The translations under genes were made by a program, and so were the position numbers. A DNA stretch of 45,570 bases, taken from IMG/VR virus record IMGVR_UViG_3300027740_000116, positions 1-45,570 of that record; one strand, written 5' to 3'. Under the pieces are notes generated by a model, which ran no database searches, was not told the origin of the DNA, and was given only the letters and a program-made list of their open reading frames with translations. The first letter of the stretch is position 1. Each line of letters opens with the position of its first letter. This document shows, piece after piece, positions 2,303 to 24,098 of this stretch. Origin of the DNA: a virus (Duplodnaviria; Caudoviricetes).

Positions 2303-2520
2303 CCATCCCTCCCACCTGCACCCGCAACGAGATCATGAAGCGTCTGGGCATCAAGAGCCGCACCGCTTTCCATCACCTGAGACGCCGGTATCCACACGCC
2401 TTCATTGTTGTCCATCAGGGCTCGAAGCCCGGCGATCCAACTCTCTACGACAAAGCTGCCGCGGATAGTTTCATCGACTGGCGCAATTTCGGCAAGGCTT
2501 ATAAAGGTAAAACACAATGA
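2299..2520 (+). CDS. Small winged-HTH DNA-binding protein (excisionase/AlpA-like)
   Basis: TRNEIMKRLGIKSRTAFHHLRRR HTH pattern plus TLYDKAAADSFI; co-transcribed with the recombinase. Confidence 0.55.
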   Translation: MTIPPTCTRNEIMKRLGIKSRTAFHHLRRRYPHAFIVVHQGSKPGDPTLYDKAAADSFIDWRNFGKAYKGKTQ

Positions 2521-3008
2521 CCAGCAAATACCCCACGATCAATCTGCCAAGAGCGACGGCTATCTACCAAATCGTGAACACCGTCAACGGCTGGGTGTAC
2601 ATCGGCAGCACCCGCGACACAGAGAGCCGCCTCCATACGCACCTTGTGGAGCTGTACAGGAACAAGCACACCAACAGCAAGCTCCGCCAGGACGCGAACA
2701 AGTACGGCCCGAGCGTTTTCATCTTCTCAATACTTGAAACCCTCCCTGATTCGGCTACCGAAGCAGAGATGTTCGAGAGAGAGGTGTACTACACCCGGCA
2801 GGCTCACAGGCATGGAAAATGCTACAACCCCAAAGACCCGCGCGTTCGTCACGGTTGCCCTAAAAGAGTCTGTTCTATTTGCGGCGGTACACACCGCTCA
2901 AATTGGATGTGCGCGCAACACCTTATGGAGTGGCAGGACTTCTCCCAGAATGTGTCTAAAATCTCCTCCGAGGATTACATTCAACTAACAAAGGAACATC
3001 CCCAATGA
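2517..3008 (+). CDS. GIY-YIG family endonuclease
   Basis: AIYQIVNTVNGWVYIGST...R..H...H.N.KL..D..KYG...F.FSILE...E.E motif set; C-terminal CxxC..H.....C..H. Confidence 0.9.
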   Translation: MTSKYPTINLPRATAIYQIVNTVNGWVYIGSTRDTESRLHTHLVELYRNKHTNSKLRQDANKYGPSVFIFSILETLPDSATEAEMFEREVYYTRQAHRHGKCYNPKDPRVRHGCPKRVCSICGGTHRSNWMCAQHLMEWQDFSQNVSKISSEDYIQLTKEHPQ

Positions 3009-3907
3009 ATACATCTCTCGCCCTCCCTGCCTTCGACTACTCCGCCCTCGACCGCGCCGACCTGGCAGCCGGCACCCGCCGGCACTACAAAGCCGCGATT
3101 GCCCTGCTCCTGGCGGCGCAGATCGACCCCTTCGACTACTCCGCCCTGGCAAACTACGCCTTCAGCCTGCCGTCCTCGGGTCGCTCCAATCTCAAGGCAG
3201 CTCTCGCCATCATCACCCGCGACTATGTCAACCGCGCCAAGGCCGGCGCCAGTCTCCACAACCATGAGGCCGTGCAGGCGTTCTTGTGGAAGGTGGAGGC
3301 GATGAACGCGGCGATCACCGTCAGCCAGCCCGACGCCGAGAGACAGCCGCACTGGCTTTCCCAGGACCAGGTCAATAACCTGCTCGCCCTCACCAGATCC
3401 AGCCGGGATTACATCGTGCTGGCGGTCCTGCTCGGCGCCGGCCTCCGCCGGGAAGAGCTCGAAAACCTGACCTTCGGCGCCCTGGCGAAGATCCCCTACA
3501 ACGGGAAACTGTGCGAGACCCTCGCCGTCCGCGGCAAAGGTGACAAGACCCGCACGGTCCCGATCTCCGCCCTGCTCGCCTCCCGCATCCGCGCCTGGCA
3601 GGCGGAGACCCACAGCGCGCCCGAGGACCGCGTCGCCCGGCGGATCAGTAAAGCCGGCAAGCCGGGAGAGAGCCTCTCCGCCTATGGTATTTTCCGGATC
3701 GTCCGCAAATACGGCCTCCTGCTCGGCATCCCCGACCTGGATCCACATGATTGCCGGCGTTCCTATGGCAGACTGCTATACGAGGCTACCCATGATATTA
3801 TGCTGGTCAAGGACGTTTTAGGGCATCAGAGCGTCGCCACAACGCAGATTTACATCGGGCTGCAGCTCAGGCTGGGTCTGCCTGAGAACGCCTTCCCGGT
3901 TGGATAA
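3005..3907 (+). CDS. int: Tyrosine recombinase (integrase / XerC-like)
   Basis: Catalytic residues GLRREE (R), RGKGDK (K), HDCRRS (HxxR), LGH and TQIY (Y). Confidence 0.93.
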   Translation: MNTSLALPAFDYSALDRADLAAGTRRHYKAAIALLLAAQIDPFDYSALANYAFSLPSSGRSNLKAALAIITRDYVNRAKAGASLHNHEAVQAFLWKVEAMNAAITVSQPDAERQPHWLSQDQVNNLLALTRSSRDYIVLAVLLGAGLRREELENLTFGALAKIPYNGKLCETLAVRGKGDKTRTVPISALLASRIRAWQAETHSAPEDRVARRISKAGKPGESLSAYGIFRIVRKYGLLLGIPDLDPHDCRRSYGRLLYEATHDIMLVKDVLGHQSVATTQIYIGLQLRLGLPENAFPVG

Positions 3908-4371: not shown

Positions 4372-4731
4372 TCAAGCGTCGTGCGCGACCTCCGAATTTA
4401 TCCCAGGCGTAGGGCGAAGCAGCAAGCCGCCTTTCTTCACGTGCTCCTGGGTCCACTGGTCAAGACCTTTTATCGTCTCGGGTCTGTACCATTCAAACTG
4501 AGCAACGCGGGAAGGGTCGCAATGGTAGAAATTTGACTGCATCACGCCCTTGCATCCAGATGTAGCACGGCATGAAATCATAAAAGGCGTCACGCCTTCA
4601 TCGGTATCTATTGTGACGACCTCACCGCGGCAGGTGTTGCATGTATACAAATTCATGCGGGCATGACCGGTTGCGGCTCGCTCATCAAGCCATTTTTGGA
4701 CTTCCTTTGACAATACAAATTTCTTACTCAT
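4372..4731 (-). CDS. Hypothetical Zn-binding phage protein
   Basis: YTCNTC...GVTPFMISC...C...EWYRP...EHV..GGLLLR; AAAGGA RBS. Confidence 0.7.
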   Translation of the reverse strand: MSKKFVLSKEVQKWLDERAATGHARMNLYTCNTCRGEVVTIDTDEGVTPFMISCRATSGCKGVMQSNFYHCDPSRVAQFEWYRPETIKGLDQWTQEHVKKGGLLLRPTPGINSEVAHDA

Positions 4732-4774
4732 GGTCTATCCTTTATTTAGGTAACAACATACTTGACGCACAAGC

Positions 4775-4900
4775 CTATTTACCCTCTTTCTTTTTCGGCT
4801 TTTTCTTCGGTTGCTTTTTGGGTTTTCGTTTCTTCTCTTTTGGAGTGTTCACAACGGTTTTAGCCATGTCCTTGAACTTCTCAAACTCTGACTTTGACAC
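4775..4900 (-). CDS. Small Lys-rich protein at the IS1595 end
   Basis: GGAGGA RBS and GTG start; MSKSEFEKFKDMAKTVVNTPKEKKRKPKK...; alternative coupled ATG at 4948. Confidence 0.55.
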   Translation of the reverse strand: MSKSEFEKFKDMAKTVVNTPKEKKRKPKKQPKKKPKKKEGK

Positions 4901-4944
4901 AAATGTTCCTCCGCCGATATTTTGGATGTGGATGGGTCCATCTT

Positions 4945-5220
4945 TCATGGGTAAACTCCATAATTGGGATGACGACGGTCACAGTATTCACAGCCCAAAT
5001 CAGACCAGTCGTAAATATCTTTTCCGCAATGCGGGCAACACTCTCCCCCGTCGTCGTAATCATCGCCCATGCTTGCAACAACAGCAGACTCAGCTTCCCT
5101 GTCGCAAGCATCACAGTAATATGGTTCAGTCAACGGAATCGGAAAGCCTTCATCGTCTAAGTAAAATTCATCGGGGGCTAGGATTTGCTCACTGCAACCA
5201 GAGCATTTTATGTACGTCAT
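4945..5220 (-). CDS. Acidic Cys-rich (four CxxC) passenger protein
   Basis: CSGC, CDAC, CPHC and CEYC; ATGA-coupled to the transposase fragment. Confidence 0.65.
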   Translation of the reverse strand: MTYIKCSGCSEQILAPDEFYLDDEGFPIPLTEPYYCDACDREAESAVVASMGDDYDDGGECCPHCGKDIYDWSDLGCEYCDRRHPNYGVYP

Positions 5221-5645
5221 TGGTTCACCCTATAGGTTTCATCGGCTTCGACTTCGCCGGAGAGTTTTTCAAGAGAACCCTGTTGCATGGCATATCTAAT
5301 CCGATGAAGAACAAACCACGCGGATTTCTGAGTCATGCCGAGAGAGCGCCCGATTTCATAGGAGCTAATCCCGTTCTTGGCATTGGCAATCATCCAAATT
5401 GCACAGAGCCACTTGTCAAGCCCGAGGGCGCTATCCTCGAAGATCGTACCGACCTTGACAGAGAATTGCTTCCTGCAAGCCTTACAGCGCCATATAAGAC
5501 GGGTTTTGATAAACCACTGCTCCTGCCCTCCGCAGTGTGGGCAGATAACCCCATCAGACCAACGGAGGCTAACTATGAACTCATGAGCGTTCTGTTTATC
5601 AGCAAAGTAAATCATGGCTTCTTGAAGTGTCTTAGGCTGATTCAT
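5217..5645 (-). pseudogene. IS1595-family transposase, truncated after the first catalytic Asp
   Basis: RW.DGV.CPHCG...WRCKACRKQFSVKVGTIFEDS Zn-ribbon, KNGISSYEIGRSLGMTQKSAWFVLHRIR HTH, LSGEVEADETY, then a stop 4 codons later. Confidence 0.92.
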
Positions 5646-9814: not shown

Positions 9815-10201
9815 TTACTGGCCACGTTCTACAACTTGCTTTCGGGTGACACCGCACTTACAGACATCGCTATCAACAAATTCATGGGCGTGGAGAGCCG
9901 GCCGCTGCACGTTAGGCTCCAAACAAATGGCATTACCATTGTGGGCGGCTTTCCATGAATCAAAAGCCTTTTGCAGATTCATCCAAAAATCAACAGATAT
10001 GCCGAAGGCGCGGGATAAGCCAAAGGCGATGATCGGTATAACAGGTTGCTTGCACTCGACTAGGTTTCTCACAATATCTTCAGGAACATGAGGGGACCTC
10101 ATTTGCCTTGCTAGCTCGGCAACATCCCAACCGCGCGCTTCCATTTCATCTTTCACAAATTCACCTGGGTGAAAACATTGTGCAGGGATTCTTTTTTTCA
10201 T
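9815..10201 (-). CDS. higA: HigA/VapI-like antitoxin (XRE HTH) with C-terminal extension
   Basis: HPGEFVKDEMEARGWDVAELARQM...AFGISVDFWMNLQKAFD signature. Confidence 0.8.
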   Translation of the reverse strand: MKKRIPAQCFHPGEFVKDEMEARGWDVAELARQMRSPHVPEDIVRNLVECKQPVIPIIAFGLSRAFGISVDFWMNLQKAFDSWKAAHNGNAICLEPNVQRPALHAHEFVDSDVCKCGVTRKQVVERGQ

Positions 10202-13410: not shown

Positions 13411-13421
13411 GGGTCTCCTAG

Positions 13422-13545
13422 CGGCTTAGATTAGCGGCTTGGGCGTATTGCAGAACTCGCAATACTCATGCCACATCGGCGGACGCGGAACAAAGTGGTG
13501 ATCGCAGGCGCGTAAGCCCAAGTCCGCCTGCGCGCTTTGTTGGGC
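13422..13545 (-). other. attC-like integron recombination site
   Basis: R'' GCCCAAC, GCGCAGGCGGAC-TTGGGC ... GCCCAA-GCCGCTAA, 8 nt, then G|CT. Confidence 0.6.
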
Positions 13546-13662
13546 GGACTGCTCTAACTGCGAAATCCTTTCAAGCAGAAACCCTACCAACTGGCGACGG
13601 AATAAATTCTGCCCTGCTTGAAATTTCTCCTCAATCTCTTTTACGTGTTCACGAAGATTCAT
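13426..13662 (-). CDS. Hypothetical protein whose 3' end is an attC-like hairpin
   Basis: 78 aa; C-terminal SAQQSAQADLG...CEFC encoded within the attC-like site. Confidence 0.6.
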   Translation of the reverse strand: MNLREHVKEIEEKFQAGQNLFRRQLVGFLLERISQLEQSAQQSAQADLGLRACDHHFVPRPPMWHEYCEFCNTPKPLI

Positions 13663-13922
13663 TGATTACCTTCTTCCTGGGCGGACCGCCCAAACGGCAG
13701 CGGGCGCAGCGGGTGTTCGGCGTCATAGTGTTTGCGGGCGAAATTGTATAGCGCCCGGATACTTGACCGATATGCAAGCGCGCGCCAATCACCCATGCGG
13801 GTGATTTTGCATTCGTATCCCTCATCGATAGAAATCCAGTTCCGAAACAAGGCGTATCCATGTTCCTGCAACCACCGGATTTCTTCAACTGTCAATGCGT
13901 TTCTAGGTAATCTCTTTTTCAT
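13659..13922 (-). CDS. Hypothetical protein (possible cassette gene)
   Basis: 87 aa from MKKRL; preceded by GTTGGGC; start uncertain. Confidence 0.55.
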   Translation of the reverse strand: MKKRLPRNALTVEEIRWLQEHGYALFRNWISIDEGYECKITRMGDWRALAYRSSIRALYNFARKHYDAEHPLRPLPFGRSAQEEGNQ

Positions 13923-14070
13923 AATGCTGCCCAACTCATGCTTTCTTCGGTTCACAGACATCCCGCGTCCCAGCCGCGAAACCACTCCGAGCGTTCCGGC
14001 TCCACTGTGTATGGGTTGTTTCTGCGCGGGACTTCTGACAGACAAGCGTCGAAGCCTTCCTGAAACGGGG

Positions 14071-17546: not shown

Positions 17547-18382
17547 TTCACACCTCCAAGTAATTTATCAGCCAGGGCGCGGCGCGCGGCTAACTTCTCC
17601 GGCGTCTCTGCCGGCGGGACGGGCTGGGCGGGGCGCTTGCCGTTGGAACGGGAGGGCTTCCTTGCCGGCTCCTGGTTTCCCTGGGCGCGCCAGCGCTTGA
17701 GAATAGCCTCGACGTACTTCCAGCTGCGCGCGTTGTTGGCTGCCGCCTCCCGGATGGCGTCGAGTACCCACTTCAAAGGGTAGGTGGTTGCGGCGTCCCG
17801 GAGTTCGTCGGCGATCATAGCCGTCAGCACACCGATCTCGGATTCGTATGCTTTCGTGATTTGGGCGAGCGCCTCATCCTCCTCAAAACCTTTATTAGAA
17901 TCTTTAATCAACTGACTCACAGAAGCAGTTGCCTTTCTGTGAGAAGCAGATCTGCTTCTGTGAGAAGCAGTTTCAATCCTTACCCCTGTGGCACTTGTCA
18001 TCACCACCAGGCCGGCGTCCACGTACACATGAGGCCTGTTTTTCAGGTCCGGCGTGGTGTCGATCAGGTACTCGTCCTCGCAAAGGACCTTCAGGCGGCG
18101 CATAACGGTCACATCGTCAACATTGAGGATGGCGGCTATTGTTCGCAGGGAGGCCTTACAAACCCCGTCCTCCATCTGGCAGAACCGCCAGACCACACCA
18201 AAAACGGCGGGAGTGATCTCGTCACGGTATTTCTCCAGAAGAGCTTCGAATAATGGATAAAAGCCGCTGATCTCCTGCACAATCCGGCGCGGCTCATGTT
18301 TATAGCCTGCGCCCAGCATCTCGCGCGCGTTCTCTGTGTTGTCTTCAACTTTGTATTTTCCGGTGAGTTCATCTGTTTTCAT
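17543..18382 (-). CDS. Replication initiator (N-terminal wHTH, C-terminal DnaD/DnaB_2 domain)
   Basis: YESEIGVLTAMIADELRD...WVLDAIREAA.NNARSWKYVEAILKRW DnaD signature. Confidence 0.88.
   Translation of the reverse strand: MKTDELTGKYKVEDNTENAREMLGAGYKHEPRRIVQEISGFYPLFEALLEKYRDEITPAVFGVVWRFCQMEDGVCKASLRTIAAILNVDDVTVMRRLKVLCEDEYLIDTTPDLKNRPHVYVDAGLVVMTSATGVRIETASHRSRSASHRKATASVSQLIKDSNKGFEEDEALAQITKAYESEIGVLTAMIADELRDAATTYPLKWVLDAIREAAANNARSWKYVEAILKRWRAQGNQEPARKPSRSNGKRPAQPVPPAETPEKLAARRALADKLLGGVK
17890..17970. other. Putative replication origin (iterons plus AT-rich tract) inside the initiator gene
   Basis: AGAAGCAG at 17921, 17942 and 17963 (21-bp period); TTCTGTGAGAAGCAG twice; palindrome CTGCTTCT-GTG-AGAAGCAG; adjacent AT-rich 17890-17912. 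Confidence 0.7.
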
Positions 18383-22390: not shown

Positions 22391-22570
22391 TCACCATCCA
22401 TGAATGAGTTGGTGGATTGCCCACCAGAACTTTTCCGAGAACGTCACATGCGCGGGGAAGTACTGGTTGCCCACCACTACCACGGTGTGATCGATCCTTG
22501 CGATTGCTGCCAGTAACGCAGCGCCGCCGATCACACAGACTTTAGAGCCGGAACGAATAATGGTGGGCAT
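22391..22570 (-). CDS. Small hypothetical protein
   Basis: 59 aa, immediately after the cassette junction. Confidence 0.4.
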   Translation of the reverse strand: MPTIIRSGSKVCVIGGAALLAAIARIDHTVVVVGNQYFPAHVTFSEKFWWAIHQLIHGW

Positions 22571-22576
22571 GGCGAT

Positions 22577-22899
22577 CGGGTTAGGCTTTAGCGGCGGGCG
22601 GTTGTGGGTAGGTATCGCAGTAGAAGCAGGAATCACCGTCTGGAATATCGGCTCCGCAATCGGGGCATACCCGCCCGTCCGCCTGCAAGCCTGTGTTATC
22701 TGGCTCATCGAAATCATCCGACACGGCAGGCATACATTTGTGACAATAGAAAAAGACATCATCGAGTTCGGCGTTATAGGATGATTCTGCGTCATCGATG
22801 CTGACCTTTACGCCACACTCGGCACATGCGACCAATGTTTCTATTTCGGACTTGAGATTTTCCATATCAAATTCCTTTGCTGGGAATGAGCCAGCTAAC
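22577..22899 (-). mobile_element. Integron-type gene cassette (gene plus attC-like site)
   Basis: Starts G|TTAGCTGGCTCAT; internal R'' ATGAGCCAGATAAC is its 13/14 complement; AGGCTTGCAGGCGGACGGGCGG pairs with CCGCCCGCCGCTAAAGCCT; ends G|AT. Confidence 0.7.
22581..22865 (-). CDS. Acidic double Zn-ribbon protein (cassette gene)
   Basis: AAAGGA RBS; CAEC, CHKC, CPDC and CFYC. Confidence 0.65.
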   Translation of the reverse strand: MENLKSEIETLVACAECGVKVSIDDAESSYNAELDDVFFYCHKCMPAVSDDFDEPDNTGLQADGRVCPDCGADIPDGDSCFYCDTYPQPPAAKA

Positions 22900-22906
22900 T
22901 TCTGAG

Positions 22907-22979
22907 TTGCGGGGGCAAGATTTGAACTTGCGACCTCCGGGTTATGGGCCCAGCGAGCTGACCACTGCTCCACCCCGCA
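22907..22979 (-). tRNA. tRNA-Met(CAT), initiator-type
   Basis: Full cloverleaf TGCGGGG-TG-GAGC-AGTGGTCA-GCTC-G-CTGGG-CCCATAA-CCCGG-AGGTC-GCAAG-TTCAAAT-CTTGC-CCCCGCA-A; three G-C pairs in the anticodon stem; A11-U24; no encoded CCA. Confidence 0.93.
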
Positions 22980-22984
22980 TCGTT

Positions 22985-23245
22985 TCAACTTGTGACAGGT
23001 TGGGGAACCTGTGCTATCACTAAGGTATGCACACCAGAAGCAGCGATGATCTCGGTCCAGCACTTCCCGCAGACGTGGAAATAAAAACTGGTGCCGTTCG
23101 AGCAGAAGAATTTCAGGATGCCCGCCTTCTGAGGCTGGCAGCACAGGGGTTCGTCTGCCTCCCGGACCTTCTGTAACTCCTGTTGTGCATCCTCTTTTGC
23201 GGAAGTGAGCGGCTTGAGCCAATCATTCAATAATTGCTTTTGCAT
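22985..23245 (-). CDS. Hypothetical protein
   Basis: AAGGA RBS; 86 aa with Cys residues. Confidence 0.6.
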   Translation of the reverse strand: MQKQLLNDWLKPLTSAKEDAQQELQKVREADEPLCCQPQKAGILKFFCSNGTSFYFHVCGKCWTEIIAASGVHTLVIAQVPQPVTS

Positions 23246-23268
23246 GACAAAATCCTTTATGCTATACT
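23240..23268 (+). promoter_or_regulatory. Antisense sigma70 promoter
   Basis: TTGCAT, 17 bp, TATACT, with extended -10 TG. Confidence 0.6.
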
Positions 23269-23274
23269 TGCGCG

Positions 23275-23355
23275 CAGATTGGCATTTCATTTCACGCCAA
23301 TCGTCGTTGCCTTGAGAGGGAGCGGGTCGCCGCCTGCTCCCTCTCGTTTTTTTTT
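23275..23355 (+). ncRNA. Putative ~80-nt antisense small RNA
   Basis: Promoter upstream; hairpin GATTGGC/GCCAATC; 13-bp terminator stem (23314-23345) followed by T9. Confidence 0.5.
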
Positions 23356-24026: not shown

Positions 24027-24098
24027 AGTATAAAACTATTTTTGAGTTACGTCAAGGGTTATGAAGCCCTTGACGTAATTCGGAGGACTCTTTATAAT
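24027..24098. promoter_or_regulatory. Back-to-back divergent promoters sharing a palindrome (genetic switch)
   Basis: Minus: TTGACG (24055-24050), 17 bp, TATACT. Plus: TTGACG (24070-24075), 17 bp, TATAAT. Inverted repeat TTACGTCAAGGG-N8-CCCTTGACGTAA. Confidence 0.85.

Follow-up and report, generated by a model that had tools for sequence, protein, structure and literature searches.

Can a phage gain a gene as an integron cassette, and can the recombination site of that cassette at the same time encode the end of the cassette's own protein? The question is raised by a 322-bp unit (positions 22577–22899, minus strand) in a soil virus record of 45,570 bases, which was analysed over its full length and is referred to here as the window. 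The genome is 99% complete (CheckV) and carries capsid, terminase, DnaD-like, methyltransferase and lysin genes. The unit lies in a leftward operon, between a tRNA-Met, which is the sole Rfam match, and a gene of 59 codons (Table 1); a sigma70-like promoter (24055–24027) is located ahead of this operon. The original prediction, made from the letters of the DNA, was that the unit is an attC cassette inserted beside the tRNA, that its ORF reads through the attC, and that the phage gains accessory genes in this way without an IntI of its own. The elements that it described are all present: a G|TT start next to the tRNA, with the G 7–8 positions past it, a leader with a ribosome binding site (RBS) and a 94-aa gene, an R''-like complement of the cassette start, a bulged attC stem, a G|AT end, and a stop codon at the far end of an attC whose loop encodes a CPDC..CFYC Zn-ribbon.

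The attC spans 131 nt from R'' to R'. The extended R'' (22708–22695) is a 13/14 complement of the cassette start (22899–22886), and everywhere else on both strands of the window, R'' itself excepted, the agreement is below 11/14; R'' (AGATAAC) differs from RYYYAAC at the single mismatch of this complement. When the two arms are paired, three bases of the left arm stay outside the helix and the spacers are 3 and 6 nt long. This agrees with the description of attC sites, which have an unpaired central spacer and two to three extrahelical bases in the arm that lies opposite the AAC of the bottom strand (PMC5027507). The 69-nt loop falls within the 3–100 nt given for the variable terminal structure (VTS) of attC sites (PMC7439510). 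The gene departs from the layout in which it stops before or within R'', which is the usual arrangement rather than a strict attC criterion: its TAA (22583–22581) lies in the unpaired L'-R' spacer, 4–6 nt ahead of G 22577, and residues C67–C83 (CPDC..CFYC) are coded within the attC loop.

Table 1. Coordinates of the cassette, its neighbours and related features in the window
Feature	Position	Strand	Remarks
Tyrosine recombinase, Xer/phage-integrase type; the only one in the phage	3005..3907	+	TIGR02249 43.7 bits vs cut-off 265
Second read-through unit: 78-aa ORF (13662–13426) through attC (13545–13416), R' G|CT, loop CDHH..CEFC	13416..13662	-	
Cassette 5' of second unit, likely decayed: 87-aa ORF from 13922, G|TT at 13935	13659..13935	-	model weak, E 0.63
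59-aa gene 3' of cassette	22391..22570	-	two full-length homologues, identical start
Right junction G|AT (G 22577), preceded by stop codon in L'-R' spacer	22575..22583	-	
94-aa ORF: N-terminal CxxC..CxxC module (residues 11–45), acidic linker, attC-encoded CPDC..CFYC tail	22581..22865	-	
attC right arm with L'	22584..22601	-	end shared with viral loci L040, L189
Loop, 69-nt VTS, encoding second CxxC..CxxC	22602..22670	-	
attC left arm: L'' and three extrahelical bases	22671..22691	-	arm recurs in bacterial sites L006, L019
R'' (core 22701–22695) with extended complement; translated D-E-P-D-N	22695..22708	-	
RBS AAAGGA, 7 nt ahead of ATG	22873..22878	-	sequence
Left junction G|TT, crossover after G 22899; cassette's own R' and extension	22886..22899	-	13/14 complementary to own R''
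tRNA-Met (CAT), initiator-like; left neighbour, outside cassette	22906..22979	-	ARAGORN; Rfam 22907–22979

When both strands of the whole window were scanned for arm pairing, the cassette site came first among all AAC..GNT candidates, with a score of 14.6; a perfect palindrome (17909–17972) scored 14.3. An attC covariance model had been suggested as a check, and two were built in this analysis, distinct from that of IntegronFinder; both recognise the site. Model R1, from 20 bacterial sites, matched 22571–22701 at E 3.7e-7 (runner-up 0.54), a score that is partly circular because 12 of the 20 training sites were retrieved with the left-arm motif of the cassette site itself. Model R2, trained on 34 sister-type viral sites, matched at E 5.2e-5 and is independent of the cassette site, which does not match the sister-type motif. 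The left-arm motif was found in 39 stretches of GTDB genomes, many by chance; about a dozen of them also possess a right arm that pairs with the left one and ends CGCCGCTRAAGC-N7-GTT. This right arm was absent from the search pattern, and the stretches without one were discarded. Several of the dozen lie in arrays and several in Chloroflexota. The same attC subtype, with the same terminal stop (..AAKA*), is also present in two other phage records (L040 and L189), within tandem arrays where every cassette start complements its own R''. The predicted recombinogenic folding of the cassette attC is weak: for the circular form the fold has a predicted probability of 0.0014 and lies 5 kcal/mol over the minimum, and for the integrated form, with the R box unpaired, the probability is about 0; five bacterial control attC gave 0.0001–0.37. 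The inner stem of the bottom strand favours another register in the predicted folding, and the integrated bottom strand has an overall folding z of -1.7. We regard it as very probable that the unit at 22577–22899 is an integron-type gene cassette.

No IntI was found in the phage genome, where TIGR02249 gave 43.7 and 24.6 bits against a cut-off of 265, and the only tyrosine recombinase of the phage (Table 1) is ruled out as an IntI since it scores far below this cut-off. The 99% complete genome thus lacks the intI gene that defines a complete integron. Removal of the 322 bp rebuilds G|AT, a GWT-type site that is weak evidence alone, as it is a 3-nt motif. GWT is the consensus for genomic attG insertion (10.1101/2022.09.11.507474), and an altered second base in one of the recombination partners is tolerated (PMC2811028); the attG hotspot motif CRGM is not present at +6..+9 of the rebuilt site. 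The insertion would have landed 6 nt ahead of an intact gene because the start Met of the 59-aa protein is identical in both of its homologues (P0022 and P0023), and judged by these full-length homologues this is a real gene. With a single attC, no integrase or att site close by, and the nearest other attC about 9 kb away, the cassette resembles a SALIN, and it falls outside the CALIN definition of Qi et al. (at least two attC within 3 kb). The exact 24-mer of the empty site had no match in IMG/VR, and the downstream 59-aa protein had none in IMG/VR or in 401 genomes of the class. A 1.7-kb stretch compared with GenBank phages matched in the tRNA only, among the 20 of 238 matching records listed, and a 2.2-kb stretch gave short matches only against 50 and 43 sister viral records. 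Nor was a joint or circle found in the contigs of the likely source run, which cover one sample. As neither an empty-site relative nor a joint in these contigs was found, the insertion is a step that we infer.

The attC family, which is the basis for assigning a host, suggests that the phage infects Anaerolineae. Of 151 genomes from the class to which an Ardenticatenaceae MAG belongs, 13 contain the sister attC type, and this MAG has an IntI gene 2.8 kb from a sister-type attC. IntI above the cut-off was also present in 6 of 45 sister viral records, which had been picked from motif matches, and because IntI occurs in both settings the integrase could be that of the host or of another phage. 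In the four records whose 3' ends were examined, the phage intI is co-oriented with the array and ends 6–14 nt ahead of the first G|TT. The capsid protein had no match in five sister records, and these are therefore not close kin of the phage. The claim that the phage gains attC cassettes without its own IntI stands as to the identity of the cassette, the absence of IntI and the GWT-type site; it has to be modified in that the cargo is of phage type and looks less like a captured host gene (see below), and in that the integrase need not be the host's. In the phage-borne integrons L190–L195 a full-length intI is co-oriented with the array and the putative attI overlaps the intI stop, a layout unlike the divergent one in bacterial G056. 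An attI-like TGTACA..TAAA..CATAG|TT, 22 nt ahead of the first cassette, is conserved before the first cassettes of L056, L057, L068, L070, L076, L098, L108, L123, L134 and L170.

A second read-through unit is located at 13.4–13.9 kb (Table 1). Its attC matched the covariance model at E 1.2e-4, which is partly circular for the left arm. The 87-aa ORF of the likely decayed cassette upstream ends in a remnant of an attC left arm (about 13736–13689), and the cassettes at 13416–13935 look decayed. The presence of this unit and of the upstream remnant indicates that the phage took cassettes more than once. The G|TT at 13935 is preceded by an attI-like end, and the right end of the attC at 13545–13416 matches that of an attC in L186. 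A third candidate attC at 9815–9915 (minus strand) went undetected by both models and is unproven; at this position the end of a HigA-like HTH gene (NCBIfam 47.5 bits vs cut-off 47.7) resembles a degenerate attC, with a CKC motif and a stop near GTT.

The explanation that we prefer, and hold to be probable, is that a read-through cassette was inserted at G|AT, a secondary (attG) site, by an IntI acting in trans, and that its protein tail is under selection. The IntI would have come from the probable Anaerolineae host or from a co-infecting phage, and the cassette from a phage pool in which genes lose the stop before R'' and use the stop within the right end of the attC; the loop, unread by the integrase, would then be free to evolve as protein and be selected for a small Cys4 knuckle tail. 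The circular cassette, in which the bottom strand would pair the R box, would have recombined at the G|AT located 6 nt before the resident gene and landed in the sense of transcription, its own RBS included. Ribosomes ending at the attC stop would be likely to re-initiate on the resident gene, which is plausible because its start lies 10 nt past the stop and no SD motif remains before it; this would accord with the short ORFs known from attC sites (see below). Since the R box no longer pairs after integration, the unit probably excises slowly or not at all, and it may be on its way to becoming a normal phage gene, a course that the second unit also appears to follow.

An alternative would be that the unit is what remains of a former phage integron or array. 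The cassette would have joined it in an ancestor that possessed intI, by recombination of its attC with an attI or with another attC, and its neighbours would since have been lost; G|AT would be what mutation has left of the G|TT of the following, decayed cassette. Sister phages do carry intI with arrays directly downstream, the second unit ends in G|CT and has decayed neighbours, 5 of 7 positions in the right flank of the cassette agree with cassette starts that are common, and the left GTT is preceded at 6 nt by an AAC, which is the arrangement of a simple recombinase site. We nevertheless consider a former array unlikely, as there is no attC within 9 kb up- or downstream, the left flank is the end of the tRNA and lacks TGTACA..TAAA..CATAG|TT, and the downstream gene keeps the start Met of its homologues.

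Is the reading through of the attC peculiar to this phage? A two-arm motif was found at a minimum of 138 viral loci in 57 of the 64 parts of the viral set. As the motif itself fixes a TAR in L', the test is which of the frames stays open. Frames were counted at the 141 distinct viral sites, of 149, that have 300 nt upstream, in records some of which may be proviral or contain host DNA. From 60 nt before R'' the frame of the L' stop is open at 94 of the 141 sites, against 8 and 20 for the other frames, and at 82 of 111 non-redundant sites (8 and 15). Bacterial sites with the same motif, from genomes of the Anaerolineae class, have this frame open in 4 of 57 cases (12 and 14 for the other frames) or in 2 of 25 when one large array (G134) is left out, and at 41 of the 57 the longest frame upstream does not extend past R''. 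A CxxC is encoded in 49 of 141 viral loops versus none of 57 bacterial ones. Paired knuckles occur in the read frame of 37 of 116 non-redundant viral loops, against 0 and 1 in the other frames, and against a mean of 0.45 and a maximum of 3 in 200 dinucleotide shuffles. The original prediction regarded the read-through and the Zn-ribbon loop as an oddity of this unit; with 94 of 141 sites open, read-through is instead the majority state of a large phage-cassette family, of which the cassette is a typical member and which is apparently so far undescribed.

The best reading of the read-through is that the loss of the stop was tolerated and that the loop was then selected as protein. The sequence of the loop is not read by IntI (PMC5027507). 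Translational coupling as a general driver of read-through is not supported, since SD motifs before the next gene are equally common at read-through (37/69) and other viral sites (18/34) and attC sites have been reported to have little polar effect (PMC11511950). The frame preference of the Cys knuckles suggests that those of the family tails are under frame-specific selection. Neutral read-through, in which a gene can afford to lose its stop and the base composition of the loop gives rise to the Cys motifs incidentally, would account for tails that vary freely between homologues, for the three of ten attC-tailed proteins without paired knuckles (see below), and for the many viral tails that are a host-type loop read as a low-complexity peptide. 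We give this explanation a low probability, as base composition would hardly place paired knuckles in the read frame of 37 of 116 loops with 0 and 1 in the others and a shuffled mean of 0.45, and as the bacterial loops have no CxxC. Tails could be exchanged either by top-strand recombination at R'', in which both L boxes stay together, or by homologous recombination in the conserved left arm.

The 94-aa protein had no Pfam match above cut-off and no match in NCBIfam, PHROG or PDB (E 0.17); the sole return of the first single-protein viral search (L041) was rejected as a chance CPDC match. AlphaFold predicts the N-terminal module to be a small zinc-finger-like unit of beta strands (pLDDT 76–80) and the linker to be disordered, while the C-terminal knuckle is poorly predicted (pLDDT about 55–62). 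The CxxC motifs suggest that the protein may bind zinc. Ten homologues have residues 1–54 in common, after which 9 of the 10 switch to peptides of the translated-left-arm type with differing tails; by eye, paired knuckles are present in 7 of 10 attC-tailed proteins, the cassette protein included, and missing in 3. The tail of P0002 is that of the cassette protein, the tail of P0005 is identical to one on an unrelated gene body in L096, and L057 and L146 have a common body with different tails. A profile search retrieved further homologues without sign of an attC tail: the N-terminal module forms the end of several phage-like proteins (P0028–P0031), and in P0025 and P0027 it is followed by a native Cys-rich end. 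The DNA encoding P0025 (L201 and L202) is an ordinary phage gene without an attC match, and a proposed attC remnant in L202 was discarded, having no model match and a likeness that is faint and by eye only. Because the cargo module is also present in phage genes that lack an attC, the cassettes look more like packaged phage genes than captured host genes. The last 16 residues of the attC-borne tail of P0009 are also those of the native C-terminus of the attC-less P0031, which hints that loops may take their sequence from a gene's own 3' end.

The attC-less homologues would also be expected if gene and attC had been a passive hitch-hiker, brought in from the array of another phage by ordinary mosaic recombination, homologous or illegitimate, with the attC kept as coding sequence but otherwise a non-functional fossil. 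The weak predicted fold and the mismatch in R'' are consistent with this; both ends of the unit, however, coincide exactly with the predicted crossover points. Illegitimate recombination would not produce such ends, and a passive origin is improbable. A chance arrangement or terminator-like hairpin that is no attC, to which the folding z of only -1.7 might point, can be dismissed in view of the matches to two models, the unique complement of the start, and the near-identical arms in bacterial and phage arrays. Insertion of a read-through cassette by an IntI in trans thus stays the explanation that we favour.

Integron cassettes are treated as a gene plus a noncoding site, and coding attC have been reported as engineered constructs. 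The SALINs, according to the accessible text of Loot et al. (10.1101/2022.09.11.507474), resemble the cassette in being single, in having no integrase or att site near, in flanks that rebuild GWT, and in insertion downstream of a resident promoter; they were described in bacterial genomes, whereas the present cassette lies in a phage and its gene is translated through the attC. Phage attC without IntI are known from the phage CALINs and integrons of Qi et al. (2023, PMC9892861), who demonstrated recombination of phage CALIN attC sites by IntI1. Their survey, which required two attC within 3 kb, found 21 of 10,705 phages, and its main text makes no mention of read-through or coding loops. The cassette described here is solitary and, unlike that set, belongs to a family of Anaerolineae type, for which a single motif scan gave about 140 more viral stretches. 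The synthetic coding attC of Nivina et al. (2020, PMC7439510) likewise combine attC structure and ORF on the same DNA; as presented in the accessible text these are engineered linkers and lacZ inserts, whereas the site of the cassette is natural and terminal and has a Cys-knuckle loop. Translation across the hairpin is also known from short ORFs in attC, proposed to aid the downstream gene (Jacquier et al., 2009, as summarised in parts of PMC8876359 and PMC11511950). Those are separate short ORFs past the stop of the cassette gene; in the present case it is the cassette gene that runs on, with no stop ahead of the one in the attC and about 40 residues added to its product.

Phage attC and integrons (PMC9892861), lone attG cassettes (10.1101/2022.09.11.507474) and engineered coding attC (PMC7439510) are thus already published. 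No report of natural attC loops that code for protein tails was found in the literature searched, which mostly excluded subscription journals. New are also the occurrence of the cargo domain in attC-less phage genes, the homologues with different attC tails, the single tail on two unrelated bodies, the IntI in 6 of 45 sister records, and the second, decayed unit. A natural family in which the hairpin is the C-terminal 40 residues shows the extent of sequence freedom that IntI tolerates and provides a route for modular protein evolution in phages. As the same protein module occurs with and without attC, the family offers a handle on the origin and domestication of cassettes. The case also suggests that lone read-through phage attC are undercounted by surveys that need clustered sites. 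It is tempting to speculate, although we consider it doubtful, that Anaerolineae phages run an integron economy of their own, with their own genes packaged as cassettes, intI co-oriented with the array, and the attC serving as an exchangeable C-terminus, so that gene bodies would trade zinc-knuckle tails by recombination at R'' or immediately past it, with the hairpin left intact. If so, the attC-less and attC-bearing forms of a gene would be snapshots of cassette genesis.

Several other features of the genome may be mentioned. The tRNA-Met (minus strand, Table 1) has an anticodon stem with three G-C pairs, which is initiator-like, its CCA is not encoded, and it has a C at position 33, where tRNAs usually have U; this is possibly an anticodon-loop change against host nucleases. 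On the strand opposing the operon a promoter-like site is followed, about 45 nt on, by a strong hairpin and T-run (23239–23350, plus strand), which might yield a small antisense RNA covering the start of the ORF that precedes the tRNA. Divergent near-consensus promoters at 24027–24098 have a 20-bp inverted repeat in common and a Cro-like HTH gene on the right, and this pair is likely a genetic switch. A GIY-YIG-type endonuclease is encoded at 2517–3008, and a fragment of an IS1595-family transposase at 5217–5645 (minus strand), within 4641–5645, overlaps a long open frame on the other strand. The perfect palindrome at 17909–17972 lies within the DnaD-like replication gene and is a candidate origin element.
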